Below the pieces are notes generated by a model that was not told the DNA's origin, did not search any database, and was given only the letters and a program-made list of their open reading frames with translations. From Candidatus Krumholzibacteriia bacterium (GTDB lineage Bacteria > Krumholzibacteriota > Krumholzibacteriia > WVZY01): 31,989 nucleotides of DNA. The stretch is from assembly GCA_036478295.1 (NCBI GenBank), contig JAZGDW010000262.1, forward strand, positions 1 through 31,989, in the 5' to 3' direction. This document shows positions 10,695-29,520 of this stretch, in pieces. The translations under genes were made by a program, and so were the position numbers. Each line of letters opens with the position of its first letter. The first letter of the stretch is position 1.

Positions 10695-12326
10695 TTAGCG
10701 TTTGCGGCTCTTGCCGCGCCCGCCGCGTTTTGAGGAGCGTGGACTCGAGCTCTTGCTCGATGACCGGGAATGCGACCGGGAGCTTTTCACGCTCCGGCCC
10801 TTTGCATTTGAGGAATGCGAACGCCGCTGGGTCTTCACCGACCGCGATTTTCCGTGACTGCCCGAGCGCGGAGCGGCTTTGCCATAGCGCCGCGACGTCG
10901 ACCGCTTCACCGCTTTTCGCCCGCCGGACCTGCTGGCCTTGCTGCGCCCGACACGCGTCTTGGAACTGTGTGAGCGCTTTGACGTGTGGACCCGCTCCTT
11001 GTGGCTCCTGGAGCCTCCTCGGTGGACAATCTTCTTCACGGGCCGCGTCCGGGTCCGGTCGCCCTTCTTAACCGCTTTCTTGCTGTAACTCTTTGCGCGG
11101 GACGAGTGCTTGACCTTCGTGGACTTACCTATTGCTCGGGTCGTTCTCGATGTCGCCTTGTGGCGCACTCGTGGATCGTTCCCGTAGTTCGTTGCCGAGG
11201 CCACGCCACTTTTGTCCCGTACGCTACCCTTCAGCCGCAGGGATCGCGCCGCGATCGTCTCACCGTGGTGCCCCCCGTACCCGTAACCCCCGTTGTAATA
11301 CGGGTAGCCGTAGCCGTAACCGCTGTAGTACGGGTAATCGTAGTAGTTAGCGTAGTGGTGATTGTAGTGGTGTCCCCAGTAGAAGCCGACACTCCAATAA
11401 AAGCCGCTCCCATAATAGTAGTAGGGGTAGTACGAGTAATAGTTGTAATACGGGTAATAGTTGTAATACGGATAGTAGCCGTAGCCCGCGTACGACGGGT
11501 AAGAACCGTAGCCGTAATAGTCCGGGTAGTACGTTACGTAGACGCGGTTGGTCGTGCTTTCGCCCGTGTCGTCGTCACCGTCGTCGTATCCCTCCGGCCT
11601 GGCCAGGTTATCGATAAACTGTCTCTCGAACGCCGGCGCCAGCGGATAGCTTAAGTGATGTTCGTTGTTGAACGCCGTGGTGGCCTCGTACTCCGCGATG
11701 CCCTCGCCATACGGATCCTTGCCGGAGGCGTAGCATTCCTCACAGAGGTAGCGGGGATAGTCGACCGCCTCGTTTACATAGAAATACGTATAGGCGAGTG
11801 AGACCCCTTCGTTGTAACGCACCCCGCGCACCAGTTTCTCGGCCACCCGGTTGGCCGCCAGGAACGGGTCACCGTCTATGCGGAATCGCTTGTGAAACGG
11901 GAGGCTCTCGCCTTCCAGCAGAGAAGCGATCTGGCTCTCGCTGATCGCATCCCGCTCCGGCACCGCCAGCGCGAACACGAACTCGATGCCAGTCATACCG
12001 CTGATACGGAGGGACTCACGCGCGTCCTGGGGGATGTGCAACGTCTCGCCGGCCGAAAGTTTCGGGAAGGAAGTGCTCTGCCGTGGGTACAATAGGCTGA
12101 CGAATCCCTCGGTATCGATATTGAAGACCAGGATATGGGCGTCGGTATCCGTATCGAGGGTGAAACTCACCGTTTCACCTTTCTGGTAGACACTGCCCGA
12201 TGGATCCGCCAGGGTTATACGGACGCCATATTTTGAATAGTCTGTTGAATTATAACGAGTTACTGCCTCAGAATTCTGGGCGAGGATCAGGGCCAGGACC
12301 GGAAAGAGAGCGAGGGCTTTCTTCAT
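10695..12326 (-). CDS. Exported DUF4384-like protein with Tyr-rich region and Arg/Ser/Lys-rich tail
   Basis: AAGGAGG RBS, signal peptide, YQKGETVSF...VFNIDTEGFVSLLYP DUF4384-like domain; low-complexity C-terminal half. Confidence 0.8.
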   Translation of the reverse strand: MKKALALFPVLALILAQNSEAVTRYNSTDYSKYGVRITLADPSGSVYQKGETVSFTLDTDTDAHILVFNIDTEGFVSLLYPRQSTSFPKLSAGETLHIPQDARESLRISGMTGIEFVFALAVPERDAISESQIASLLEGESLPFHKRFRIDGDPFLAANRVAEKLVRGVRYNEGVSLAYTYFYVNEAVDYPRYLCEECYASGKDPYGEGIAEYEATTAFNNEHHLSYPLAPAFERQFIDNLARPEGYDDGDDDTGESTTNRVYVTYYPDYYGYGSYPSYAGYGYYPYYNYYPYYNYYSYYPYYYYGSGFYWSVGFYWGHHYNHHYANYYDYPYYSGYGYGYPYYNGGYGYGGHHGETIAARSLRLKGSVRDKSGVASATNYGNDPRVRHKATSRTTRAIGKSTKVKHSSRAKSYSKKAVKKGDRTRTRPVKKIVHRGGSRSHKERVHTSKRSHSSKTRVGRSKASRSGGRKAVKRSTSRRYGKAAPRSGSHGKSRSVKTQRRSHSSNAKGRSVKSSRSHSRSSSKSSSPRSSKRGGRGKSRKR

Positions 12327-12516: not shown

Positions 12517-13272
12517 ATGGATACGCAATTTGTACTGCCGTTTGCGGATGTGGGGCAGTCGTTCATTTCACTGATGCTCGGGAGCGGCGCGTTCGCCAAG
12601 GTCGTGCTGCTCATCCTTTTCGTCATGTCGGTCACCTCGTGGGCGATTATCTTCGACCGCACCCGCCTGTACCTGAAGCTGAGACGACTTGGAAACTCGC
12701 TGCAGACGGGCCTTGCCTCCAGAGGCCTTGCCTTGCCCATGGCGACGGTCAACCGCGGCCTGCCGTCGATCGAGGGGGCGTTGATCCTAGAGACCAAACG
12801 CTATCTGGAGGGGAATAAACCATCTTCCGCGGAAGGCTCTCCGGGGGGAGGCGGCCGCTCGGTGGACAAACTCAAGGATCTCCTGGACGGCCGCGCCGTC
12901 TCCGAGGTGTCGGAGATGGAGAAGTACCTCATCTTTCTGTCTACCACGGCCAGTGTCGCCCCGTTTCTTGGGCTGCTCGGCACGGTGTGGGGCATCATGA
13001 GCAGTTTTCTCAGCATGGGGGTGCAGGGAACGGCGAGCATCGAGGTAGTCGGCCCGGGCATCGCCGAGGCGCTCGTCACCACTATCGCGGGCCTCGGCAC
13101 GGCGATTACAGCGCTCGTGGGGTATAACCTGTTGGTGAGGCACGTGCGGCGCCAGGAAACCCGCATCGAGCTTTTTATCTCGAGGATTCTCGCGTTGACG
13201 GCCGACAAGTTCCAACAGCCGAGTTCGCACCCGGCCACCCGGGAGGCGTCGTATGAAGAAAAGTCCTTATAG
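12517..13272 (+). CDS. tolQ: TolQ (MotA/TolQ/ExbB proton channel)
   Basis: APFLGLLGTVWGIMSSF and PGIAEALVTT motifs; first gene of the tol-pal cluster. Confidence 0.92.
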   Translation: MDTQFVLPFADVGQSFISLMLGSGAFAKVVLLILFVMSVTSWAIIFDRTRLYLKLRRLGNSLQTGLASRGLALPMATVNRGLPSIEGALILETKRYLEGNKPSSAEGSPGGGGRSVDKLKDLLDGRAVSEVSEMEKYLIFLSTTASVAPFLGLLGTVWGIMSSFLSMGVQGTASIEVVGPGIAEALVTTIAGLGTAITALVGYNLLVRHVRRQETRIELFISRILALTADKFQQPSSHPATREASYEEKSL

Positions 13273-13654
13273 CTCCATCTCGGAGATCAACATCACATCC
13301 CTGGTCGACGTGATGATGGTTCTCCTGATTATCTTCATGTTGACGGCGCCCTTTATCCAGGCGGGGATAAAGGTGCAGCTGCCCAGGGCCAAATCGACGG
13401 TCATCAAGGAAACCGACGGCGTCATGCTGGCGGTGACCCGGGAAGGCGACATCTACCTCAATGACCGCAAGGTCGAGCGGGACCAGATGGAGGAATCTCT
13501 GCGTAACCTGAAGGTCGCCGGCGAGGAGCGGGTGTTCGTGCGGGCGGACAAGGAAGTACCATACGGAGTCGTAATGGAGGTAATCGGTCGGGTCAAGGCG
13601 GTGGGAATCGACGAGGTGGGGTTGATTACCCAAATGGAAAAAATCGAGAAATAG
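13253..13654 (+). CDS. tolR: TolR (ExbD/TolR)
   Basis: EINITSLVDVMMVLLIIFM and RADKEVPYGVVMEV motifs. Confidence 0.92.
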   Translation: MKKSPYSSISEINITSLVDVMMVLLIIFMLTAPFIQAGIKVQLPRAKSTVIKETDGVMLAVTREGDIYLNDRKVERDQMEESLRNLKVAGEERVFVRADKEVPYGVVMEVIGRVKAVGIDEVGLITQMEKIEK

Positions 13655-13678
13655 GATCCGGATACCGGTCCTGATGAG

Positions 13679-14335
13679 ATGAAAAACGCACTTCTTTTTT
13701 CGTTCGCGCTGCACGTTGTGGCGGGTGTTCTGTCACAGGCGGTGGTCAAGTTCTCCCACGTCCGTTTCGTTCCGCGCGAGGTCTACTCGGTTCAGATAGT
13801 GGATCCCGCCCTGTTCGAGAAACCGGCGCCCAAACCCCCTCCGGTCGTCGAGAAGAAAACCGAGCCCGTGGTCAAGCAAGAAAAGCCGGAGGAGCTCGTG
13901 CCGCCCCAGCGCAAGAAACCGAAGCCGCAGAAGAAAGAACCGGAGGTGGTAAAGAAGACCGTTCAAGAGGAAAAGCTGACGGATAACCCACCCCTGGACG
14001 ACACCGAGCCGCCGGCCACGGGTGACATGCAGCTCAGTGTAGAGGATTTCCCCTTCGCGTACTACCTCACGTCTGTGAAGCGCAAGATCGCCGCGTTATG
14101 GACGGTGCCGGGAACCGCAACGAGCGAGGAGAAGTTCTGCCGCGTGTATTTTCAGGTGGGTCGCGGCGGCGGCATCACCGCGCTTTCCATCGAGACTTCG
14201 TCGGGCAACTTCCTTTTCGACCAGGCGGCGCTGCGGGCGGTCACTCAGGCCAACCCGTTGCCCCCGCTTCCCAACGGGTTTCCCGACAACTACCTGGGGG
14301 TGCATTTTAGTTTTGCCTATGAGCAAGAGTATTAG
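13679..14335 (+). CDS. tolA: TolA (TonB C-terminal-type energy transducer)
   Basis: N-terminal TM with SxxLH, Pro/Lys/Glu linker, SSGNFLFDQAALRAV...PLPPLP; lies between tolR and tolB. Confidence 0.85.
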   Translation: MKNALLFSFALHVVAGVLSQAVVKFSHVRFVPREVYSVQIVDPALFEKPAPKPPPVVEKKTEPVVKQEKPEELVPPQRKKPKPQKKEPEVVKKTVQEEKLTDNPPLDDTEPPATGDMQLSVEDFPFAYYLTSVKRKIAALWTVPGTATSEEKFCRVYFQVGRGGGITALSIETSSGNFLFDQAALRAVTQANPLPPLPNGFPDNYLGVHFSFAYEQEY

Positions 14336-15572
14336 AATACGCGCGGGTCTGGTCCTCGTTCTGCTGCTGGCCATGCCGGTCACAGCGGTGGGTCAGTCGG
14401 AGGTGGAGCTGGGCATCCGTAGCTCGTTTGCCAACCGCATCCCCCTGGCCATCGCGCCTTTTGCGGCGCTGGACGGCACCTCACGCGAGGATGTCCTGGC
14501 GCTGGAGCGTGTGGTGACCTCCGACCTGGAATTCTCGGGCGTCTTCAAGATCCATCGCGGCAGGGTCCCCGCCGCGCACAACGGCGACACCGAGGGGCTG
14601 GTCGAAGTGCGGGGCGCGATGTTTCTCTACCGCGACAAAGCCCATTTCGAGGGCCGCGTGGTGGACGTGGAAACCGGACAACAGATCGGCGCCAAGCGCT
14701 ATCTCTTCAAGCGGGAGCAGGTCCGCCAGATCGCCCATCATTTCGCAGACGAAGTCGTGCGCATGCTGACCGGCGAAAAGGGGATCGCCACCACCCACGT
14801 GCTGTACCGGCGCAAGAGCGGGGACACGTGGGAAGTGATCATGTCGGATTACGACGGCTACAACAGCAAAGTGCTGCTCCGGCAGAGTGTCCCCATTCTC
14901 TATCCCCGCTGGCTCGATAAGGACGCGGCGCTGGCCTATACGAGCTTCCGCTACGGGAAGCCGGATCTTTTCGTGCGATATCTCAAAGAGGCCGCGTCGC
15001 GACGGCTGGCGACCTTCGACGGGATCAATTTCTCGGTGGACTGGTCGGAGAAACGCGGGGAAATGCTGGTAACGCTCAGCAAGGACGGGAACGCCGAGAT
15101 CTACATCATGAAAAAGGGGGGCAAGGTCAGAAAGCGCCTCACCCACAGCCGGGCCATCGATATCAGCCCCGGCTGGTCACCGAGCGGCCGCGAGTTGGTC
15201 TTTTCGTCGGACCGGTCGGGCAACCCCCATATTTTCGTCATGGAGGCGGACGGCAGCAACGTGCGACGTCTGACCTTCGCCGGCAAGTACAACGAGTCCC
15301 CCACCTGGTCGCCGAAGGGGGACTATATCGCGTTTGTATCGAGGATTGACGGATTCTTCCAGCTGTGTACAATTCGACCGGATGGCACCGGTTTCCAGGT
15401 GTTGACCAGTGAACCGCTCGACCACGAGGACCCTCGCTGGGCGCCCAACGGACGCCACATCATTTACAGCGAGGATCGGGACGGCGAATCGGTTATTTCA
15501 ATTATTGACATCGGCACAGGCGGTAGGAGAGTATTAGCGCAGGGTAGTAACCCGGACTGGTCTGCCCGGTAA
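14319..15572 (+). CDS. tolB: TolB periplasmic beta-propeller protein
   Basis: Signal peptide, TolB N-domain (IAHHFADEVV...TGEKGIA), DYDGYN and repeated WSP/PD40 motifs. Confidence 0.93.
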   Translation: MSKSIRIRAGLVLVLLLAMPVTAVGQSEVELGIRSSFANRIPLAIAPFAALDGTSREDVLALERVVTSDLEFSGVFKIHRGRVPAAHNGDTEGLVEVRGAMFLYRDKAHFEGRVVDVETGQQIGAKRYLFKREQVRQIAHHFADEVVRMLTGEKGIATTHVLYRRKSGDTWEVIMSDYDGYNSKVLLRQSVPILYPRWLDKDAALAYTSFRYGKPDLFVRYLKEAASRRLATFDGINFSVDWSEKRGEMLVTLSKDGNAEIYIMKKGGKVRKRLTHSRAIDISPGWSPSGRELVFSSDRSGNPHIFVMEADGSNVRRLTFAGKYNESPTWSPKGDYIAFVSRIDGFFQLCTIRPDGTGFQVLTSEPLDHEDPRWAPNGRHIIYSEDRDGESVISIIDIGTGGRRVLAQGSNPDWSAR

Positions 15573-15622
15573 GGCGGCAGACGCTGCAGGCAAGAAACAC
15601 ACGATAGCGGGAGGTTTGTTGT

Positions 15623-16144
15623 ATGAGAGTGACGAATATTCTGGTTTGTGTCCTGGTGGTGTTGGTGGCTTTTGGCTTCACGGCGTGTTCGAAAAAACAG
15701 ACCGCGAGCCAGTCCCCGTCGACAATTGATACGGAGCCGGTAACCACGCAGCCGCCACCGGCGGTTGAAGTTGACACGCCGGCCACGGACACAGAGCCCA
15801 CACAGGTACCGATTCCGGTTTTGTCGGACGTCTTTTTCGATTATGACAAGTCCAATCTGACCAGTGATGGCAAGCGGATACTCGAGGCGAACGCGCGTCA
15901 GCTCAAGGATGCACGTTCGGTCACGATAACCGTCGAAGGTCACTGCGACGAGCGTGGCACCAACTCATACAACCTGGCGCTGGGAGAGAGACGTGCCAGG
16001 GCGGCGAAGGACTATCTCCGGTCGCTCGGGGTTGGCGCGAGCCGCGTCAAGACGGTCAGTATGGGTGAGGAGCGGCCGTTCGATTCCGGTCGTACCGAGG
16101 CCGCATGGGCCAAGAACCGGAGAGCGCATTTTATTATTAACTGA
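15623..16144 (+). CDS. pal: Peptidoglycan-associated lipoprotein Pal
   Basis: Lipobox FTAC; FFDYDKS, EGHCDERGTNSYNLALGERRA and AWAKNRRA. Confidence 0.96.
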   Translation: MRVTNILVCVLVVLVAFGFTACSKKQTASQSPSTIDTEPVTTQPPPAVEVDTPATDTEPTQVPIPVLSDVFFDYDKSNLTSDGKRILEANARQLKDARSVTITVEGHCDERGTNSYNLALGERRARAAKDYLRSLGVGASRVKTVSMGEERPFDSGRTEAAWAKNRRAHFIIN

Positions 16145-16158
16145 CCGGCTGCACGATT

Positions 16159-16959
16159 TTGACACGATCGCTCGTTAAAAAGCTGTTCGGTTTGGGCGTG
16201 GCCGTGGGCGTGGCCGTGGGCCTGACATCGGGGTGCTACAGCACCAAGATGATGGAGTTTACCTATCAGGAACTCGATACGGTAAAGACCACGCAAAAGG
16301 AGCTCCTGGAGACGATCCACATGTTGTCCCAGCAGCTCGACGAGGAGAGGCAGGCCCGCGTACACGCGCAGGCGGAATCCGCCCAGACCATGCGGGAGCT
16401 CCGCGAGGTGTTGGAGATTCTGTCCTATCGGGTGGACGATACCTCGCAGCTTCTCTCGAACCGCGGCGCGTCCGGATCCGTCGGGCGCACGGTGGCCGGG
16501 CGGGACACGGTCAGGGGCCGCCCGCCGGGTACCACCGATGCAAAGACGGACACGTCGCTCGCCGCGACCGTCGGTGAAGCCAAGGAATCAAAACGACTGT
16601 TCGAGAGTTCGTACATGGATCTGACCCTGGGCAACTACGACCTGGCCGTTCAGGGCTTCAAGAACTACATCGTGCGTTACCCTGGATCAACCGGCCGGGA
16701 TAATGCCTACTACTATCTCGGGGAGTCGTATTACTCGCTGTCGCGGTACCTGGAGGCGGTGGCGGAATACCAGAGTGTCATCCGCGAGTTCCCGCGCTCG
16801 CGCTTCACCGCGGCTTCGTATTTGAAATCGGGATTTTGCTACCAGAAATTGGAAGAAAAGCAGCTCGCCACGAAAGCCTTCCGCGAACTCATCGCCAGTT
16901 ATCCGCGCAGCGAGGAAGCCGAACAGGCACGGGTCGCGCTGAAGGAAATGGGAGGGTAG
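16159..16959 (+). CDS. cpoB: CpoB/YbgF (coiled-coil plus TPR)
   Basis: Lipobox-like TSGC, coiled coil, TPRs (GNYDLAVQGF, AYYYLGESYY, YPRSEEA); follows pal. Confidence 0.88.
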   Translation: MTRSLVKKLFGLGVAVGVAVGLTSGCYSTKMMEFTYQELDTVKTTQKELLETIHMLSQQLDEERQARVHAQAESAQTMRELREVLEILSYRVDDTSQLLSNRGASGSVGRTVAGRDTVRGRPPGTTDAKTDTSLAATVGEAKESKRLFESSYMDLTLGNYDLAVQGFKNYIVRYPGSTGRDNAYYYLGESYYSLSRYLEAVAEYQSVIREFPRSRFTAASYLKSGFCYQKLEEKQLATKAFRELIASYPRSEEAEQARVALKEMGG

Positions 16960-21693: not shown

Positions 21694-21812
21694 GGCGTGC
21701 GACCTCTGCTTCTCGTCGCGAACGGTCGTAGTTCGTTGCTGGTGAACGCACAGTATACAACCCTGTAATGATTTCTTGCAATCGTCATTACGAGTCGGTA
21801 ACGTACGGCGTC

Positions 21813-23165
21813 ATGACGGCCCCCAGGAGTCGATACTTCCGGCGCAACTTCACATTGGGTGTCATCACCGGGGCGCTCATCAATCTCGGAATGGCGTTCC
21901 TGGACCCTTTTATCGTGCTGCCGCTGTTCATTTCGAAGCTGGGCGGGTCGGCGACGTTGATCGGCCTGGTCAGCGCCCTCCACGGCGTCGGCTGGTTCTT
22001 CCCCCAGGTATTCGCGTCACGGCTGGCGGAAACGCGGCGATTTCTCATGCCGATGTACCGGGGCATATCGCTGTTTCGGATTCTGTCGCTCGCCGGCGCC
22101 GCCTTGATTGTGCTCACCGTCGACCCCGAGCACACGGGTCTCTTTCTCACGGGCTTCCTGGGGCTGCTCTTCCTGGCCCACCTGGCTGGAGGTTTTTCCG
22201 CGATTCCGTTCCTCGAGGTGACGAGCAAGACCATCCCGGTGACCATTCGCGGACGCTTCTTCGGGACCCGCCGTCTCATCGGGGGTTCGGCCGGGATTGG
22301 CGTGGGCGTGCTCGTCGGGTTGGTACTCAATCGCCGCGAAGAGAACCTGTGGATGAGCGGACCCTTTTTTGACTTGCTGGGGCCGGTGGCGGCCAGACTC
22401 GGCCTGCTCGGCCGCGAGTTTCCCTCCGACTTTGGCATCCTCTTCCTTCTCGGGGCGGGCTGCATGACATTGGGCATGCTCGCCTTCGCCTTCGCCGGAG
22501 AACCACCTGCGGTCGCCGTGCAGGAATCAGCACGCCTCCTCGACCACCTGCGTGCCGGTTTCAAACTGATCAGACGTGATGCCAACTACCGCCTGTTCTA
22601 TCTCGTGAGAATCTGCTGGCAGTTCACGGCGATGACGTTTCCGTTTTACGCCGTTTACGCGTTCACCGACCTCGAATTCTCGGAGAACACCGTCGGGCTC
22701 TTCTTGTCCCTCTGGCTGGGGGCCGGTGTCTTGTCGAATTATATATGGGGAAAGATACTCGACCGCAGCGGCAACAAGAGTGTTCTGCTGGCGACTGCGA
22801 TCCTCAGTGCGCTGCCGCCCGCCGTCGTTTTGGTGGTAGACGGGATGATACGCCACTCGCTGGAGCCAGCGAGCGTGAAACTCCTGCTGGTGATCAGCAC
22901 GACCTTTCTGGTAAACGGTTTCATTCGCAGCGGCCGCGTAATCAGCAATATCACCTACCTGCTCGAGTTCGCACCCGAGAACAAACGGCCCCTGTACGTG
23001 GGTTTCATGAACAGCTTCAGCTTTCCCTTCATGCTGAGCCCCCTCCTGGGCGGGGTCATCCTCCAGGTGTTCGATATCCGCATCCTCTTCTCCATCTCGC
23101 TGGCCTTTGCCCTCCTTAACATGGTGCTTAGCACCGGTCTCAAAGAGCCGCGGGTCACGAAGTAG
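21813..23165 (+). CDS. MFS transporter; last codons replaced by the integrated element
   Basis: About 12 TM segments, WGKILDRSGNK motif-A variant, RPLYVG. Ends LKEPRVTK in the integrated state. Start is 21813 or 21768. Confidence 0.9.
   Translation: MTAPRSRYFRRNFTLGVITGALINLGMAFLDPFIVLPLFISKLGGSATLIGLVSALHGVGWFFPQVFASRLAETRRFLMPMYRGISLFRILSLAGAALIVLTVDPEHTGLFLTGFLGLLFLAHLAGGFSAIPFLEVTSKTIPVTIRGRFFGTRRLIGGSAGIGVGVLVGLVLNRREENLWMSGPFFDLLGPVAARLGLLGREFPSDFGILFLLGAGCMTLGMLAFAFAGEPPAVAVQESARLLDHLRAGFKLIRRDANYRLFYLVRICWQFTAMTFPFYAVYAFTDLEFSENTVGLFLSLWLGAGVLSNYIWGKILDRSGNKSVLLATAILSALPPAVVLVVDGMIRHSLEPASVKLLLVISTTFLVNGFIRSGRVISNITYLLEFAPENKRPLYVGFMNSFSFPFMLSPLLGGVILQVFDIRILFSISLAFALLNMVLSTGLKEPRVTK
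23137..23149 (+). repeat. Left att core repeat
   Basis: GTCTCAAAGAGCC (then G-CG), inside the MFS codons GLKEP. Confidence 0.8.
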
Positions 23166-23254
23166 AATAGCTCGTACAACTATCTATGGGACAACAAGGT
23201 AACATGATCCAATCCGATCCTGATTTGCGCCGTGGCTAGTAATCGGGTGCTGGC

Positions 23255-23776
23255 GTGCCCGGAAGTGGCGTCGGTCCACGAAAGATCGCTGAACTTGAAT
23301 CTCAATTGGCTACAGAGGATGAGCGGCCCTCGCTTACTATGTTCGTTGATCCAAAGAGACACGAAAAGATACCCTCTAAACCGACAACTTTTCGCGTAGT
23401 CGTAAAGAACGATGGGGGCGTGAAGATTGATGATATATCGGTGCGAGTAAAGAGCGTTGAGCCGCCTAGCGATAAAATGAATAAGTATCGGGATGTGCCG
23501 CTACATCAAAAACATAATAATACTCCACCTTATGACGAGTACTTTTCCCTTATAGCTGGGGAGGAAAAGGAAATAGATGTTATAGCTGGAAACGACGGGG
23601 CCGCAACTTTTTGCGTCTGCCACATCGTTGATGGGTTGTATCCGTGGGTAACCTGCGATCTAGGCCATCGGAATTTTGAGTTTTTCCTAGAAGCGAAAAG
23701 CGAGGACGCTAGCTGCGAAATAACAGTAGTGGTTCGAGATGATGATAATAATAGGCTCATCTTTGAACGAGAATAG
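23255..23776 (+). CDS. Hypothetical protein, probably 5'-truncated
   Basis: AT-rich open frame KIAELESQL...RLIFERE without a convincing RBS or start; internal ATG at 23339. Confidence 0.55.
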   Translation: MPGSGVGPRKIAELESQLATEDERPSLTMFVDPKRHEKIPSKPTTFRVVVKNDGGVKIDDISVRVKSVEPPSDKMNKYRDVPLHQKHNNTPPYDEYFSLIAGEEKEIDVIAGNDGAATFCVCHIVDGLYPWVTCDLGHRNFEFFLEAKSEDASCEITVVVRDDDNNRLIFERE

Positions 23777-23823
23777 ATGTTTTGCTCAGCGCGAAGCACC
23801 GAGGCGCCAAAAAAGGGGGGCCT

Positions 23824-24015
23824 ATGGTTCCAACAATAGGAATTATGATTGGCTGGTACATTATAGCACGCTGTCTGTCTCTTTTGACACGAGTGGGCGA
23901 GCGCTCTGAGAACCTGCTGGTCAAAGTGTTTGCCGGCATCGCGATTCTTGTCGCGATGTACTCGATATTCTCTTTGCTTCTTGGGAGCTTGACGGGTGAC
24001 TTGGGAACCGGTTGA
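23824..24015 (+). CDS. Small two-TM membrane protein
   Basis: AAAGGGGGG RBS then ATG 23824; MVPTIGIMIGWYIIARCLSLL...VKVFAGIAILVAMYSIFSLLLG; 63 aa. Confidence 0.7.
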   Translation: MVPTIGIMIGWYIIARCLSLLTRVGERSENLLVKVFAGIAILVAMYSIFSLLLGSLTGDLGTG

Positions 24016-24030
24016 AGCAGGAGAGTACCG

Positions 24031-24600
24031 CTATTGATAGAGCGCCTTCACGCGGCCCCAGGTGGTTGGCTCCACTGGTACGGTCGGACAAATAAGTGCG
24101 GTCAGGCCGACACCCGGGATCTCCACGTCGGGGTCACCAAGAACAAACGCCCCTAGCAAACCAGTGCGAGGGTTCGGACCAACAGTGATTGGAGCATTGC
24201 TAGTGCCCGTGCAGGCGCTGCATTGCCATAGTAGGACAACCTCGACGAGGATGAGCGCTGTGTTGGCGTCCACCGCGCCGCCCAAAAACCCAAGCTGGAG
24301 CCCTGTCGGCGTTGTACCGTTAGTAAGGGTGGGCATAAGATAGTTCTCCCCAATATACTGGAGCTCCGGGGGAAAGGTAATCTGAAACTCTATCGCGTTT
24401 ATCATGGCATTGAAGTTTAGCGCGGCAACATATAACCTCTGCACCACCGTTCCCGGGGGAGCTATCGGACAAGTCGCCGCCTCAACCTGTATCTTTTCGT
24501 CGAAATAAACGGCTACAAATGGGGTCTGTGCACTGAGGATGGTGAAGCCGGAGGTGATGAGCAAGAGTGAAACCAGAACCACAACAACTGGTTTACACAT
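24031..24600 (-). CDS. Secreted Cys-containing beta-rich protein with C-terminal TWG motif
   Basis: AAAGGAG RBS before ATG 24600; signal peptide; ends CPTVPVEPTTWGRVKALYQ. Confidence 0.85.
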   Translation of the reverse strand: MCKPVVVVLVSLLLITSGFTILSAQTPFVAVYFDEKIQVEAATCPIAPPGTVVQRLYVAALNFNAMINAIEFQITFPPELQYIGENYLMPTLTNGTTPTGLQLGFLGGAVDANTALILVEVVLLWQCSACTGTSNAPITVGPNPRTGLLGAFVLGDPDVEIPGVGLTALICPTVPVEPTTWGRVKALYQ

Positions 24601-24624
24601 GACTACTCCTTTCAATGAGCGCTT

Positions 24625-25221
24625 CTATTCAGCGTACAGCGACTTAATTCGGCCCCAGGTCGTGTGGGGATCGTCGGGGATGCCGGTGGGATCGGCTCAC
24701 GGACACGTGGCGTTGTGATTGATGATGCCCTCGCCGCAGTCCACAAACACCACCCGGCCCTCACAGTCCCCTAATTCGACTTGGCCGGATACCGCAGCGG
24801 GATGCGGTAGAACCTTGTAAGAGCAACAAGGGGATGTTCCCCCGCCAAAAGTAAGGACGCTAAGGACATGGATCGGTGTAGTTAAGCACCGGCCGTACTC
24901 AATGGTAACGCCGGTTTGCGAGAAGCCGATCGTGACGGGGAACGGATTGTTGTCCGCGAGCCACATGCCCGGATAGCAGGGCGGTAATGGGGCCGAGAAT
25001 CGGCTCTGCCAGGCACCCGGCTGCCCGCGCGCTCTCGTGTGAACTATATACCAGAAGTTAGGTGCTGCAGCATCAGAAAGAGCACAGTCAGCTCCGAATG
25101 TATCGCTAAAGATCCCGATGCGGCCGCCCGCCCCCTGAGCTTGCGCCGTCCGGGGTGCCGTCGATAGCAATGCGAGGAATAGAAACAGGAGAAGCGAACG
25201 GATGAAACGGGAACTCGACAT
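24625..25221 (-). CDS. Secreted Cys-rich protein with C-terminal TWG motif, interrupted by an in-frame TGA at 24697-24699 (nonsense allele or recoded stop)
   Basis: Signal peptide ending AQA. The frame continues past the TGA: ...NHNATCP*ADPTGIPDDPHTTWGRIKSLYAE* (TAG at 24625-24627). Confidence 0.8.
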
Positions 25222-25379
25222 TGTGGTACCTCGGGGACTCGGACAGATTATACCACAAAACGTGCCGCATACCGCGGGAAGAAACGTGAAGGGGTCTCAG
25301 GCTTGAAAAAACAGGGTACACAGCCGCGAAATTGTCCCAGGGGACTCCGGGCAGGCTGGAGCGCGGCCGCCAGCGTGGG

Positions 25380-25889
25380 TTATTTCTCGTACTTATCCTT
25401 CACCGCACCCCAGGTCGTTTCCTCGACCGCGACGGGTTCCGCTGGACCAGGGGTGGGCATGCCGTTCAGGCATATCGTTCCGTCTTCGTGGACGATCGTA
25501 ATAGAAATGAAAGGATCAGAGATTATCACGAATGACCGGATCGGCGTGCCCGAGCACAAACCTAAGGTGAGTTTAGCCGTACCGATTCCCGCGGCGCTCA
25601 CAAGGGAATGAAACAAGGTATTCCCCTGTACACTGAGCAGCCAGAGGCCAACGCCCTCGAAATCAAAGACAGAGAATTCGAAGGCGCCGGGTACGGTACC
25701 GATGAGCGTCCAGGTGGTGAAATTGGCAGAGTGATATACCTCCCCGGTGTTGGTTAGGGCAAACAGGTCCGAGGGAACCCCCGGAGCGACTCCGGCAGCA
25801 ATTACGTGAACCGCCTGCGCCGGTGGGGCGGTTAGAAGGACGAGAGAAACGATGAGGATGGCGGCAGAGAACCTGTAGAATTTTTGCAT
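25380..25889 (-). CDS. Secreted protein with C-terminal TWG motif
   Basis: ATG 25889 (MQKFYRFSAAILIVSLVLLTAPPAQA signal peptide); ends AEPVAVEETTWGAVKDKYEK. Confidence 0.8.
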   Translation of the reverse strand: MQKFYRFSAAILIVSLVLLTAPPAQAVHVIAAGVAPGVPSDLFALTNTGEVYHSANFTTWTLIGTVPGAFEFSVFDFEGVGLWLLSVQGNTLFHSLVSAAGIGTAKLTLGLCSGTPIRSFVIISDPFISITIVHEDGTICLNGMPTPGPAEPVAVEETTWGAVKDKYEK

Positions 25890-25934
25890 CGGAGAACCCC
25901 TTGCTAAAGGAATGGTGAGATACGAATTAAACCT

Positions 25935-25947
25935 TGCTATTATAGCA
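25935..25947 (-). promoter_or_regulatory. Extended -10 promoter of the cargo genes within a palindrome
   Basis: Minus strand TGcTATAAT; the plus strand reads TGCTAT-T-ATAGCA. Confidence 0.55.
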
Positions 25948-26021
25948 GAATAGCCGATGGAGAGGGGGTGTTGAAACCCCGCGATGGGCTTTGCCAAACC
26001 CGGATTTTTGGGGGTAGCATG

Positions 26022-26050
26022 TTGACAGCATAGCAGCACAGTGCTATTCT
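26022..26050 (+). promoter_or_regulatory. Sigma-70 promoter of the RHH/integrase genes with overlapping operator-like palindrome
   Basis: TTGACA-N17-TATTCT with extended TG; ATAGCA-N6-TGCTAT at 26030-26047. Confidence 0.7.
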
Positions 26051-26069
26051 ATGGTAGAAAGGAGATCCG

Positions 26070-26234
26070 GTGGTGAAACGGGTCACGATAAGGGTAGACG
26101 ATAAGCTGTGGGCTCGGCTGCAGAAACGGGTCCTCGAGCTCAAACTACGCGGTGCAAAGGTTGGGGGCAAGCAGGCAAGCCTCAACGCGCTGTGCGAGGA
26201 TCTGCTGCGGCGTGGGCTGGCCAAAGGAAAATGA
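26070..26234 (+). CDS. Small ribbon-helix-helix (Arc/CopG-like) DNA-binding protein
   Basis: AAAGGAG RBS then GTG; MVKRVTIRVDDKLWARLQKRVLELKLRGAKVGGKQASLNALCEDLLRRGLAKGK (54 aa); ATGA overlap with the next gene. Shorter than any ORF in the track. Confidence 0.75.
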   Translation: MVKRVTIRVDDKLWARLQKRVLELKLRGAKVGGKQASLNALCEDLLRRGLAKGK

Positions 26235-26824
26235 GTATGGGAAAAGCACAACGACTCATAGTTGCTGGTCTTTTGTTGGGGTTCCTTATTGTTGGCAACC
26301 CGGGCGGCAGCTTCAATGACATGCCATTCTGGAAGCCCGCAGTGCCGCGTGACGTCGTTGGCGACTGGCGTATCATCGCGGTAGGGGTTGACGACGGATT
26401 TGCATCTCGTTCAGATATCGTTTGGGATTTGCTTTTGGATTATATTTTGCCAACGCGTTGGGTGCCAATAGATAGCGTTTTGGATTGGCAACCGACGACC
26501 GTAGAAGCACGTCTGAGAATTAGGGCCCCCGGGGCGTTTAGCTATACGGAGTTCAACGCAGATAACTTGGCAGTGTGGTCGAAGAGCGGGACCTTCCAGG
26601 CTTCTGAGGCTTCTGAGCCGCCTAACCAGTCATTCACGATGACTGTTGACAGGGTGCAACGCAAATCTGTAATAGGTGAAGAAATAACTGGTTACTGGGA
26701 GTCAATTGCCCCCCTCGATATCGTGCGGCAGGAAGGACGTTACGTCGTCCAGGACGCCCCGCGCCGATTGTCACTTTGTTTTGAGCAAGACGGTGTATAT
26801 CTGCTCTACGAATTAGAAGAGTGA
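26231..26824 (+). CDS. Membrane-anchored/exported hypothetical protein (lipocalin-like GxW motif)
   Basis: N-terminal hydrophobic helix, DVVGDWRII, beta-rich sequence; coupled to the RHH gene. Confidence 0.7.
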   Translation: MSMGKAQRLIVAGLLLGFLIVGNPGGSFNDMPFWKPAVPRDVVGDWRIIAVGVDDGFASRSDIVWDLLLDYILPTRWVPIDSVLDWQPTTVEARLRIRAPGAFSYTEFNADNLAVWSKSGTFQASEASEPPNQSFTMTVDRVQRKSVIGEEITGYWESIAPLDIVRQEGRYVVQDAPRRLSLCFEQDGVYLLYELEE

Positions 26825-26881
26825 TAGAAGCGATTCGGTTCTGGTTGTCGAATCAGGATTGAGCAAATAAGGAGATAACAA

Positions 26882-28006
26882 ATGACCAAGAACAAAAGCC
26901 ATGCAGAACTAATGAAAACGCTCAAGCCCGGAGAACGGTATTTCTTAGGGGCTGGGATCTTCGCCAGGCGGACAAAGACCGGGGTTACCTATGGGATCTC
27001 TTACAAGTTTGACGGAACGGTCATACGCGAGATGGTCGGCACCAGGACGGATGCAAAACTGGAGCTCGCAAATAGACGTGTCGATATAAGCGAGGGCCGC
27101 AACCCGCGCCCCAAGAGGGCGCCCCTGTTTAGGGACTTCGCCAACGAATACTTGGAGTGGTCAAAGGATAACAAGCGGTCCTGGAGGCGCGACAAGACAA
27201 TCCTTCAACACCTGCGGGCTAGGTTCGACAACAAGCGCCTCGACCAGATCCAAACCAAGGACGTGCAAGACTTCATAGCAAACCGCGCCAAGGAATTCAC
27301 ACCCACAGGGAAAAGGGTTTCGCCGCGAACGGTCAACCTCGAGCGGTCATGTCTGCGGCGCATGTTTTCACTAGCACTTTTCTGGAAGCGCCTAGACCCA
27401 AGCCGGTACACCAACCCCGTAAACCGGGGAGCGAAACCAAGGACGGAAACATCAAAGCCCCGGCGCGTCTTGACCAGGGACGAGGAGACCAGGTTGCTTG
27501 CAGCTGCAAAGCCGTACCTGCAGCAGATAATCACCTTTGGTCTGCATACGGGCATGCGGCCCGGGCAGATTATGGCGCTCAAGTGGTCGGCTATTGACTG
27601 GAAAACGAATACGATTACCGCCGGCCCGATGACCGACGAGGACTTGGAATCCGGGCACCACAAAAACGAGGCAAACCCGATCGTCCCCATAACTGCGAGA
27701 CTGGCGCGCCTCTTAAACGAGCTTCCGAGATGTTCCGTATTTGTGTTCACCCGAGATGGGAAGCCGATTAAGTGCTATAGGCGGCCTTTTTCTAGGGCGG
27801 TCAAGGCGGCCGGTATCAAGTACGCGAGCCCGCACTCAACCCGACATACCTTTTGCACCAGGCAGCTGATAGATTGCGGGACGGATCTAAAAACCGTCAT
27901 GGAAATGGTGGGCCATAAGCACATCAGCACGACGCAGAAATACCTACACACGAACGAGGAGTACAAGCGCGAAGCCCAGCGGCGCTATGATGAGCTTTTC
28001 GGGTAG
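26882..28006 (+). CDS. int: Tyrosine recombinase / phage-type integrase
   Basis: N-terminal arm-binding-like region, SAM-like domain (SPRTVNLERSCLRRMF), catalytic TGMR, HSTRH, VGH and TTQKY; AAGGAG RBS. Confidence 0.95.
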   Translation: MTKNKSHAELMKTLKPGERYFLGAGIFARRTKTGVTYGISYKFDGTVIREMVGTRTDAKLELANRRVDISEGRNPRPKRAPLFRDFANEYLEWSKDNKRSWRRDKTILQHLRARFDNKRLDQIQTKDVQDFIANRAKEFTPTGKRVSPRTVNLERSCLRRMFSLALFWKRLDPSRYTNPVNRGAKPRTETSKPRRVLTRDEETRLLAAAKPYLQQIITFGLHTGMRPGQIMALKWSAIDWKTNTITAGPMTDEDLESGHHKNEANPIVPITARLARLLNELPRCSVFVFTRDGKPIKCYRRPFSRAVKAAGIKYASPHSTRHTFCTRQLIDCGTDLKTVMEMVGHKHISTTQKYLHTNEEYKREAQRRYDELFG

Positions 28007-28054
28007 GGTGGCGGGGATCGCGGGCCGGCCTTCGCGGATTGTCACTGACCCGAA

Positions 28055-28336
28055 TTAGGTCGTTCGATCCTTAATCCAGTAGATAATGTCGGCTAAGGTG
28101 TGGTCTACAATTAGTTGGCCCTTAGCATAGTTCGATAGGTTCTCATCAGTGAAAACAAAGTCCTTTTGGCCGTCGCCTGCGAACACACGAAGTCGATATT
28201 TCGGCTCGTAACTCTTCAATCTATCAACCCAAATCAGCTTGTCTTTGTCGATCGCGGTTTCATAACGGATACGATCCAACACCCTCTTTGCACCCTCCTT
28301 GCGTTTCTCTAGATTCTTATTCAAATTTATAGGCAT
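28055..28336 (-). CDS. Hypothetical protein (93 aa)
   Basis: GGGAGGA RBS before ATG 28336; AT-rich; convergent with the integrase gene. Confidence 0.7.
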   Translation of the reverse strand: MPINLNKNLEKRKEGAKRVLDRIRYETAIDKDKLIWVDRLKSYEPKYRLRVFAGDGQKDFVFTDENLSNYAKGQLIVDHTLADIIYWIKDRTT

Positions 28337-28565
28337 AGCCAATCCTCCCTTTCTTCAAACTGTACCACTACCCCCAAAAACGGCAAGAAAGACTGAGACC
28401 GTACCACCACCCAATCCGTGGCACTTTTATGGCACACTACCGAACGCCAAAACGGTCATTTCTATTGAAAAAGTAGACTGACAAGAGAGCAGGGAAAGCA
28501 CCTAACGGGCTATAAAGAGAACAACTTTACTACCCCGCACCGACTTGGGCTCTATCGGCCTGTTA

Positions 28566-28578
28566 GTCTCAAAGAGCC
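28566..28578 (+). repeat. Right att core repeat, followed by the displaced MFS 3' end
   Basis: GTCTCAAAGAGCC, continuing in the MFS frame as LKEPRDHPPDEASD* (TAA at 28610-28612). Confidence 0.8.
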
Positions 28579-28735
28579 CCGAGACCACCCGCCTGACGAA
28601 GCTTCGGACTAATGAGCCATTATGTCATGCTGGTATGTCATGTCTGAAATCGTTTGCCTGGGAGCGGCACGGCGGCATAAGCCTAACCTATTTAATGATA
28701 GTCGATTCTAAAACTGGTCACCCTGCGGCGTGACT

Positions 28736-28751
28736 TGGCACCGCTTGTGCT
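28736..28751 (+). promoter_or_regulatory. Putative sigma-54 (-24/-12) promoter of the Hsp20 gene
   Basis: TGGCAC-cgctt-GTGCT, with GG-N10-GC spacing. Confidence 0.6.
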
Positions 28752-28825
28752 TTGTAAGTGGGCGTAGGCCGAGCGTTCTCGGCCGCACCAATGACACCGA
28801 AATTACACAACAGGAGGTAGGTGCG

Positions 28826-29248
28826 ATGTTCCTGACCAAGTACAGACCGACAAACGAACTGGAGTCCTTTTTCGACGAGAGTTTCTTTCCGTTTCTACGC
28901 AAGAGTGCAGACAGCGCCGAGTGTGAAGGCTTTCGCCTGCCCCGGACCAACGTCAATGAGGACGAGAAGAAATTCGTCCTGACCATGGAAATGCCGGGCG
29001 TGAAGAAGAGCGATATCAATGTTGCCATCGAGGACGATCAAATCGTCATCACCGGTGAGAAACAGGAGAAGACCGAGGACAAGGGTCTCCTCCGGCGCGA
29101 AATTCGCTCGGAGAAATTCCGCCGCAGCTTTCTCATTGATGCTTCGATCGACCGCGGCGGCATCAAGGCCAAGCTGGTCGACGGGATACTCGAGGTCACG
29201 CTGCCAAGGCGTGCCGAGAGTGTCGGCCGCAAGATTAGCGTGGACTAG
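28826..29248 (+). CDS. Hsp20/alpha-crystallin small heat-shock protein
   Basis: AGGAGG RBS; PRTNVNE, EMPGV, FRRSF and AKLVDGILEVTLP motifs. Confidence 0.95.
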   Translation: MFLTKYRPTNELESFFDESFFPFLRKSADSAECEGFRLPRTNVNEDEKKFVLTMEMPGVKKSDINVAIEDDQIVITGEKQEKTEDKGLLRREIRSEKFRRSFLIDASIDRGGIKAKLVDGILEVTLPRRAESVGRKISVD

Positions 29249-29274
29249 TCGGCCGGATCTGATCGGTTCCAAGG

Positions 29275-29309
29275 AGAGCCCGGGCTGTTGCCCGGGTTCT
29301 TTTTTTTTT
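29275..29309 (+). terminator. Rho-independent terminator
   Basis: AGAGCCCGGGC-tgtt-GCCCGGGTTCT followed by a T-run. Confidence 0.9.
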
Positions 29310-29520
29310 GCAGCCCCGTGGTCTGCGGAGTGATGGTCACGCGAAGCTCGAGCCGCGGTTGACCCGGCCGCGCATCCCCCACGTGTTCTACCCGGCGAAC
29401 CACGGCCGGGTTTTCGCTTGTCGGGTGTGGTCGATTTGGCTAAGGTATGATGACGCGACGTCCCCCGCCCGAGAACGCGAAACCAAGAATCCCCACCCCA
29501 GGAAATGGAGGCATTCCGGT

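Follow-up and report, generated by a model that had tools for sequence, protein, structure and literature searches.

The stretch analysed here (the window, 31,989 nucleotides) is contig C182 of the 3.5-Mb, 91% complete genome of a Candidatus Krumholzibacteriia bacterium, called the host below. On its minus strand an integrative element carries three tandem genes, A (24031-24600), B (24697-25221) and C (25380-25889), and our subject is the short C-terminal peptide, here the TWG tail, with which A and C end. Gene A encodes 189 residues that comprise a signal peptide, a predicted cohesin-like beta-sandwich and the tail VPVEPTTWGRVKALYQ (24034-24081, minus strand), a seed of the hidden Markov model (HMM) of tails from this genome that scores 42.5 bits. 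Gene C encodes 169 residues with a signal peptide, an orphan domain and the tail VAVEETTWGAVKDKYEK (25383-25433, minus strand; 29.7 bits, also a seed). Gene B encodes a Cys-rich protein with a signal peptide that runs for 174 residues up to an in-frame TGA (24697-24699, minus strand). Past this codon, 23 codons and a TAG form an orphaned tail, PTGIPDDPHTTWGRIKSLYAE (24625-24696, minus strand), which reaches 24.9 bits in the tail HMM though it is not a seed, and its linker PTGIPDDP is like those ahead of the C-terminal domains (CTDs) that mark cargo of the host's type IX secretion system (T9SS). All three proteins begin with a hydrophobic stretch; a crude test for signal peptides, based on hydrophobicity and charge, accepts A and C, and B was judged by eye. 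In the arrangement of the genes, their signal peptides and their endings, a preliminary description of this DNA made from the letters alone was accurate.

The same description took the three proteins to be dissimilar and B to be a carrier of the tail, and both points need revision. With the tails removed, A and B align at an hhalign probability of 89% (E 2e-6), so that by profile comparison they are distant paralogues and only C is unrelated. The profile of gene C shows no relation to those of A or B, and no homologue of C occurs among 200 other genomes of the phylum. Neither the three proteins nor the tail matched a named family in Pfam, NCBIfam or PHROG. The TGA of gene B aligns with a conserved Cys of its homologues, among them P0002, which is 71% identical and has an intact tail. 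The host genome has a tRNA-Sec, for selenocysteine (Sec). Around the TGA, the computed RNA fold is no more stable than those of shuffled sequences (z -0.23), with no hairpin resembling a selenocysteine insertion sequence that exceeds them; at -14.9 kcal/mol it is also weaker than the hairpin that follows a likely Sec codon elsewhere in the host genome (-23.9). Sec read-through of gene B is unlikely, since no hairpin rises above shuffles despite the tRNA-Sec and the Cys homologue. We consider the TGA quite probably a nonsense change, with Sec or an assembly error as the remaining explanations, and gene B is probably tail-less through a TGA that replaced a conserved Cys.

Genes A to C lie in a mobile insertion of 5.4 kb that entered an MFS gene (21768-23165) at its 3' end. 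Three features delimit the insertion: an integrase, a direct repeat with a rare core and low G+C content. The integrase is a tyrosine recombinase of 374 residues (26882-28006, plus strand; PF00589 E 7.6e-27, phrog_1 E 2e-61). The repeat resembles attachment (att) sites, is 16 nt long and 15/16 identical, and has a left copy within the 3' end of the MFS gene (23137-23152, plus strand) and a right copy upstream of the host hsp20 gene at 28826-29248 (28566-28581, plus strand); its 13-nt core occurs just twice in the genome. The G+C content of the element is 53.4%, compared with 59% on either flank. In all eight parsed loci of relatives (ten loci in all) the MFS gene is followed directly by hsp20, with nothing between. 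Relatives' contigs aligned to the region gave no empty-site joint, and the aligned pieces end at 23134 and start at 28566, beside the repeats, a weak indication of the borders. Rfam has no match in 22500-29500 and there is no tRNA in the window. Among the sequencing runs listed, none that holds the region is of RNA. Three further open reading frames of the element are unnamed and have neither a tail nor a family match: 23255-23776 (plus strand, 173 residues, no paralogue in the genome), 26231-26824 (plus strand, about 197 residues, hydrophobic N-terminus, no paralogue in the genome) and 28055-28342 (minus strand, 95 residues). A search of metagenomes with the integrase found only two loci, 23% identical, and gene A as a query against genome contigs found no related locus. 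A second host integrase (C233:3570-4655; C numbers denote host contigs) is 40% identical to that of the element and lies in a phage-like region without TWG genes.

The element shares its integrase, short att-like repeats, position at a 3' gene end, low G+C content and empty site in relatives with other small tyrosine-recombinase integrative elements. Nothing about it is unusual, and no transfer or replication genes were seen in its 5.4 kb. It holds three of the 39 tails of the genome, one of them behind a stop, and is ordinary and incidental to the tail. The proposal that the tag rides on a mobile element, which delivers ready-tagged cargo to a host system encoded elsewhere, agrees with these observations: the element carries tagged genes, and the candidate machinery described below lies outside it.

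Within the host genome, the tail is a portable C-terminal tag on signal-peptide proteins of unrelated folds. An HMM built from 35 terminal seeds (cut at 19.5 bits; the next score is 12.7) finds 39 copies, 38 near a stop codon and one internal. The consensus, VPVExTTWGx[IV]KAL[YF], spans roughly 16 residues. Its W, G and K are invariant in the host genome, and across 67 tails from several lineages T, W and K never vary and G hardly does. The HMM seeds were chosen by position, and a count of the plain pattern is therefore the fair test of terminal placement: in stop-to-stop frames of at least 100 residues, 34 of 40 matches lie within 12 residues of the stop, compared with 2.5 expected. In most copies the invariant K is followed by just 4-9 residues, which leaves no room for a transmembrane helix after the motif, as the preliminary description had noted. 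The crude signal-peptide test is passed by 33 of 35 tagged proteins. These proteins form 19 sequence clusters, the largest with 15 members, and the Pfam folds ahead of the tail include LTD, CHRD, NHL, DUF7450, beta-helix, multihaem cytochrome, Temptin_C and BACON. AlphaFold2 (AF2) models the domain of gene A with a predicted local distance difference test score above 90 and the tail at about 45-51, with a helix at T-W-G-R-V-K-A; on two unrelated cargo proteins the tail is of low confidence and outside the folded domain. This placement, together with the unrelated folds that carry the tail, argues that it is not part of a shared fold.

The linker ahead of the tail has one conserved Pro and is not Pro-rich in general, contrary to the preliminary description. 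The pattern [GASP][VIT][EDHQ], picked after viewing the tails, occurs within eight residues before the motif in 33 of 35, compared with a background of 6%. The single internal copy sits in a loop of a lipoprotein (C45:28609-30156), where it is kept in five genomes and missing from paralogues. Strict C-terminal placement thus holds for 38 of the 39 copies and fails for this conserved one. By eye, the C-terminal domain of the lipoprotein, which contains the motif as an insertion, looks NTF2-like. A TWG-tagged multihaem c-type cytochrome (C129:36775-37545) may be a surface redox protein. The tail profile has no sequence match in the PDB, and the ESM Atlas returned only unnamed clusters. Full-text searches of the literature found no description of the tail, although subscription papers and supplements could hold one; "TWG" has no occurrence in the main text of the Haft preprint (bioRxiv 2023.06.07.544157).

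The tail extends far beyond the host. Its profile matched all 151 genomes searched in the phylum, with 1 to 58 matches each (E<=0.01) and about 2,500 overall; in a few genomes the match is single and near the threshold. Variant tails in one genome (G055, L335:10512-12235, family f6) have SLD or TFD instead of TWG before xVKxxYR, and profile counts there are therefore lower bounds. A DNA pattern scan of GTDB gave at least 126 matches. Among the matches listed, 113 are terminal and 13 are not, the latter being six IF-2-like and five trypsin-like proteins (our own presumptive labels, from the sequences), one short frame and one match at a locus end. The titles of records with terminal tails name Krumholzibacteriia, Eisenbacteria, Latescibacterota, Fermentibacteria/Hyd24-12, Zixibacteria, Poribacteria, Ignavibacteriaceae and others, which amounts to at least seven phylum-level names. 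The tag is host-wide and present in every genome searched in the phylum, and it is not confined to one narrow lineage, as the preliminary description had suggested it might be. In a Poribacteria genome the pattern has 77 matches compared with five for a reversed control, and 27 of 30 matches read are terminal tails of related form that end 1-10 residues past K without a hydrophobic end. A pattern scan of IMG/VR gave three stretches, and the two parsed are short non-gene frames. Two Zixibacteria-titled loci (L098 and L113) hold orthologous 140-residue TWG proteins between genes that we take from their sequences to be Rex-like and an anti-sigma-factor antagonist.

A distinct form occurs in the phylum of the Ignavibacteriaceae record, where a broad profile matches 55 of 151 genomes and none of the other 96. 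The tagged protein (L083:520-933 and loci L225-L254) has about 140 residues, a signal peptide and a fibronectin type III (FnIII)-like domain; its fold matches are weak (best E 1.6e-3) and it has no sequence match in the PDB. All 120 homologues listed stop exactly four residues after K. The domain is also found in many large proteins of the same genomes, and in 18 of 30 loci the FnIII-plus-tail gene stands beside a gene that we presume to be maf-like.

Several observations connect the tail, indirectly, with the T9SS. The host genome has 82 matches to the CTD model TIGR04183, SprA and PorU over the cut-off and 11 PorV-family matches, and the PorV family is present in all 14 genomes tested. In a sample of 50 genomes from the GTDB pattern scan (drawn from about 110 loci), SprA was matched in 45 of 45 genomes with terminal tails (42 over the cut-off, one only weakly) and in none of the five with chance pattern matches only; all co-occurrence counts given here come from related lineages, so that one or few events may underlie them, their Fisher p values are too optimistic, and they show a pattern rather than many independent events. 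Ten of ten further tail-bearing genomes also matched SprA, the Poribacteria match falling under the cut-off. Tail and CTD can occupy the same place on a protein. For six of the 19 tagged cargo clusters there are CTD-bearing paralogues in the same genome, and where the cargo is of the CHRD or beta-helix type, 3-12 residues separate the end of the shared domain from the tail, or 23-39 from the CTD model. Tagged proteins of the host are small, with a median of 203 residues (n=35) compared with 687 for CTD proteins (n=74; p 4e-13). In Poribacteria the motif stands directly ahead of the CTD in two of 30 CTD proteins, one found by regular expression and one by eye. Many CTD proteins of a Poribacteria genome (G151, loci L344-L373) have a conserved, amphipathic-looking W..QA...RGI..LEQLL..L directly before the CTD.

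The motor of the T9SS was tested through GldM only (TIGR03517), from which divergent homologues may escape. GldM was not found in the host or in four other genomes, in a search that had no positive control of its own. The comparison that supplied one was made in the Ignavibacteria-containing phylum: there GldM over the cut-off occurs in 23 of 43 genomes without the tail and in none of 37 with it, in hand-picked sets (G207 was placed among the tail-bearing) of which the tail-less one leaned toward genomes with much T9SS-type cargo; a weak partial match was seen in one of the tail-bearing genomes. Beside a gene for a POTRA/Omp85 protein in the porU-porV operon of the host lies a gene for a protein of about 1130 residues (C288:4582-7980) with a weak match to residues 604-667 of SprA. 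Of 28 genomes from many lineages, tail-less ones included, 24 have exactly one copy of it; it has no name in Pfam or the PDB and retrieves only unnamed clusters from the ESM Atlas. Judged by its sequence and position, it is possibly a second, smaller SprA-like translocon. On three other contigs (C81, C97 and C203), PorV-family or CTD genes stand beside TolQ/ExbB-like genes, a TonB-dependent receptor and a GWxTD protein, with some of these labels assigned by eye. The TolQ/ExbB-like neighbours could possibly supply energy to a T9SS that has no motor of its own.

Gene A leads to a second group of candidate components. Its modelled domain superposes on a non-cellulosomal cohesin (2vo8) with a VIA Z of 13.4 and a root-mean-square deviation of 2.3 over 122 residues; the top 18 VIA rows are all cohesins, and Foldseek gives E 8e-6. 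On this model the domain has a cohesin-like beta-sandwich fold. Paralogues of gene A lie on contigs C48 and C55 and, with a CTD, on C156. The operon at C48:8744-15823, which is kept across the phylum, contains a gene for an Ig-plus-dockerin-like protein, four cohesin-like TWG genes and a second PorU-like sortase. In 14 of 20 genomes of the phylum, from six families (one duplicate genome was entered once), tagged cohesin-like genes immediately precede the second PorU-like gene, and an Ig-plus-dockerin-like gene stands before the cluster in all six extended regions that hold it. Among nine Ig-plus-dockerin-like members, Pfam recognizes Dockerin_1 in three and Big_1 in two. The host member has neither CTD nor tail; among 150 homologues of the dockerin-like protein, two are fusions with a cohesin-like domain and the tail. 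The dockerin-like module is found, too, at the end of other cargo and together with CTDs. Outside the tail, only D10, G71 and G76 are invariant in the cohesin-like family. Co-folding the C48 Ig-plus-dockerin-like protein with gene A gave a score of 0.25, with the mark at 0.32 and no controls.

We find about equal reason to accept and to doubt that the tail is a short sorting signal that docks small cargo on a motor-less, T9SS-like pathway. This reading is based on portability, position, equivalence to the CTD slot, co-occurrence and gene clustering. PorV recognizes the known T9SS signals and PorU cleaves within a flexible linker whose +1 residue is small (PMC11285876, PMC11969387, PMC4804311), CTD motif D binds PorM (bioRxiv 483123), and PorL/M supplies the energy (PMC12398890). 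On these grounds a separate peptide signal in motor-less systems would be plausible. Cargo would be exported by the Sec pathway and fold in the periplasm, and the T-W-G-x-I-K core would form a short helix on a conserved envelope protein. Candidate receptors are SprA, the SprA-like protein of about 1130 residues in the porU-porV operon, a PorV paralogue (the host has about nine PorV-family candidates) and the second PorU. The small folded cargo would then cross the outer membrane, and a PorU-like sortase may cut the small-hydrophobic-acidic linker (VPVE, TSVE, SGIK and PTGI types) and anchor or release the protein. Genes A and C would be surface proteins plugged into the host route, probably without B, which seems to have lost its tag, and A may act as a cohesin-like adaptor for dockerin-like modules of the host. 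More tentative, and in our view rather doubtful, is a wider version. On that view an ancestral motor-less T9SS, which many, mostly uncultured phyla would use for small folded proteins, has the tail as its export signal, a helical peptide read by SprA or the SprA-like protein of about 1130 residues and cut by a dedicated PorU-like sortase; the Ignavibacteria-type FnIII-plus-tail protein would be a core part of the machine, lost where GldLM is present; and in Krumholzibacteriota the pathway would assemble a surface scaffold of cohesins and dockerins, to which mobile elements add genes that are already tagged.

Besides the relatedness of the lineages sampled and the composition of the GldM sets, several observations weigh against a sorting signal. 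The motif ahead of the CTD is missing in 28 of the 30 Poribacteria proteins and in all 79 host CTD proteins read. In the host, tagged genes and PorV-family genes never share a contig. Of the Ignavibacteria-containing phylum, 53 of the 55 tail-bearing genomes hold a single tagged protein, which fits a machine component better than cargo. The second-PorU cluster was not seen in six of the 20 genomes of the phylum (two with the upstream DNA uncovered), nor in the Eisenbacteria, Poribacteria and Ignavibacteria-type regions read. Cleavage at the linker of the internal lipoprotein copy, kept in five genomes, would split a domain. The known T9SS signals, CTDs of 67-108 residues in a seven-stranded sandwich (PMC11285876) and short CTDs of 43-55 residues with three strands in P. 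intermedia (PMC11969387), are beta structures of at least 43 residues, and the tail has about 16 and is predicted to be helical. T9SS cleavage favours G, A or S at +1, and in P. intermedia the +2 residue is Ile (PMC11969387); the commonest host linker has Pro at +1, which is not among the favoured residues.

Alternatively, the tail may be an uncleaved docking peptide, which would hold its carriers on a conserved periplasmic or outer-membrane protein as part of an envelope scaffold of cohesin-like adaptors and dockerin-like modules rather than lead them through SprA, the T9SS genes co-occurring by ancestry. We consider this somewhat unlikely. Kinship can account for the SprA profile, the conserved copy in the lipoprotein loop counts in its favour, and the constant four residues after K in the Ignavibacteria-type proteins listed suggest a fixed binding pocket. 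Internal occurrence, which the preliminary description had named as a refuting observation, is found in a minority of cases (the lipoprotein loop and the copies ahead of a CTD) and is more in keeping with docking than with a signal that must have its C-terminus free. The Ig-plus-dockerin-like neighbour, untagged in the host yet fused to the tail in two of 150 homologues, points the same way. Ancestry alone, however, would not lead us to expect the interchange with CTDs, the adjacency to CTDs, the sortase-like linker or the clustering with a PorU-like gene, and the cohesin-like family, with so few invariant surface residues, would make a poor universal receptor. Considerably less probable is an amphipathic helix that sticks proteins to a membrane surface with no receptor, as do the C-terminal anchors of low-molecular-weight penicillin-binding proteins and of MinD. 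The helix in the AF2 model, the alignment of W, I/V, L and Y/F on one side and the extreme C-terminal position would suit such an anchor. Set against this are the modest helical hydrophobic moment (mean 0.32, and 0.20-0.29 for the tails of A, B and C, with no reference anchors alongside), the Poribacteria tails that lack a hydrophobic end, and a conservation of T, W, K and G over 67 tails that exceeds what lipid binding needs.

Two further explanations can be largely set aside. Some PEP-CTERM signals start VPEPxxW, which VPVEPTTW resembles, and two low-scoring structural neighbours in the ESM Atlas, under the bar of the tool, are PEP-CTERM clusters. That the tail is such a signal minus its membrane helix, processed by an exosortase or another intramembrane protease, is nevertheless very improbable: it has neither transmembrane helix nor Arg cluster and no CTERM match in NCBIfam or Pfam at E<=1. 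We rejected the exosortase hypothesis on the distribution of PF09721, which is found in just six of 13 tail-bearing genomes and is absent from the host and from tail-rich genomes G079, G070, G151 and G153. Scarcely any weight is left for the idea that the motif closes a single shared fold or is a pattern that arose by chance. The 15 of 35 host cargo proteins that belong to one family and the paralogy of A and B would fit a shared fold, but at least eight unrelated Pfam folds carry the tail, which lies outside the domain in both models, and the terminal excess in the host (34 versus 2.5) and the reversed control in Poribacteria (77 versus 5) speak against chance. Fold diversity and terminal enrichment refute both origins.

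If the tail is a sorting signal of this kind, a secretion system thought to recognize beta-sandwich domains alone would have a second address in the form of a peptide, and the tail would offer a handle on how SprA/PorV/PorU systems work in phyla without a GldLM match. Thousands of hypothetical proteins could be annotated together (about 2,500 matches in the 151 genomes of the phylum alone), and a 16-residue export tag could be useful in biotechnology. The single-copy Ignavibacteria-type version moves the question toward groups that, we presume, have cultured members.

Elsewhere in the window, a 543-residue protein (10695-12326, minus strand) has a signal peptide, a Tyr/Gly-rich middle and a long, basic Ser/Arg/Lys-rich tail. 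At 12517-16959 (plus strand), the list of open reading frames holds an ordinary cluster whose genes we take to be tolQ-tolR-tonB/tolA-tolB-pal-cpoB-like.

Looking across known systems, the tail and its cargo resemble three in part. The likeness to cohesin-dockerin modules, which include adaptor scaffoldins, concerns the cargo and not the tail. Gene A shares the predicted cohesin fold with the C. perfringens module 2vo8, its paralogues stand beside an Ig-plus-dockerin-like gene, and fusions exist; gene A differs in having only 7-15% identity and no Pfam cohesin match. With the tripartite CTERM signals (LPXTG, PEP-, GlyGly- and MYXO-CTERM) the tail shares a short near-terminal motif, many copies, at least three invariant residues, signal peptides and unrelated cargo. 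These correspond to the published criteria, namely a position near the C-terminus, multiple copies, at least three invariant residues and signal peptides (bioRxiv 2023.06.07.544157). The tail differs in having no transmembrane helix, no Arg cluster and no co-occurring exosortase, and it cannot undergo the usual cutting by an intramembrane protease. The preliminary description was right to separate the tail from LPXTG, PEP-CTERM and GlyGly-CTERM signals.

The closest comparison is with the type A CTD of the T9SS (TIGR04183/PF18962, with an FlgD-Ig PF13860 form in this lineage). The tail differs in its length of about 16 residues, its predicted helical structure, the lack of motifs B and D, cargo three times smaller, its occurrence where GldM is not found and its ability to be internal; neither A, B and C nor the tail has a TIGR04183 or PF18962 match at E<=1. 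On sequence grounds it falls outside both the T9SS CTD family and the tripartite CTERM signals. The earlier statement that it is not a T9SS signal therefore stands as far as the CTD family is concerned, but indirect evidence points to the SprA/PorV-family/PorU machinery. Tail and CTD alike pair a signal peptide with a C-terminal signal on diverse surface-type cargo, occupy the same slot on paralogous proteins behind a similar small-hydrophobic-acidic linker, and occur in genomes with SprA, the PorV family and PorU. The ending K-x-x-x-R of many tails also recalls the conserved Lys in the final strand of the CTD, a resemblance only. By analogy of slot and context, the tail may work in the way that a T9SS CTD does.

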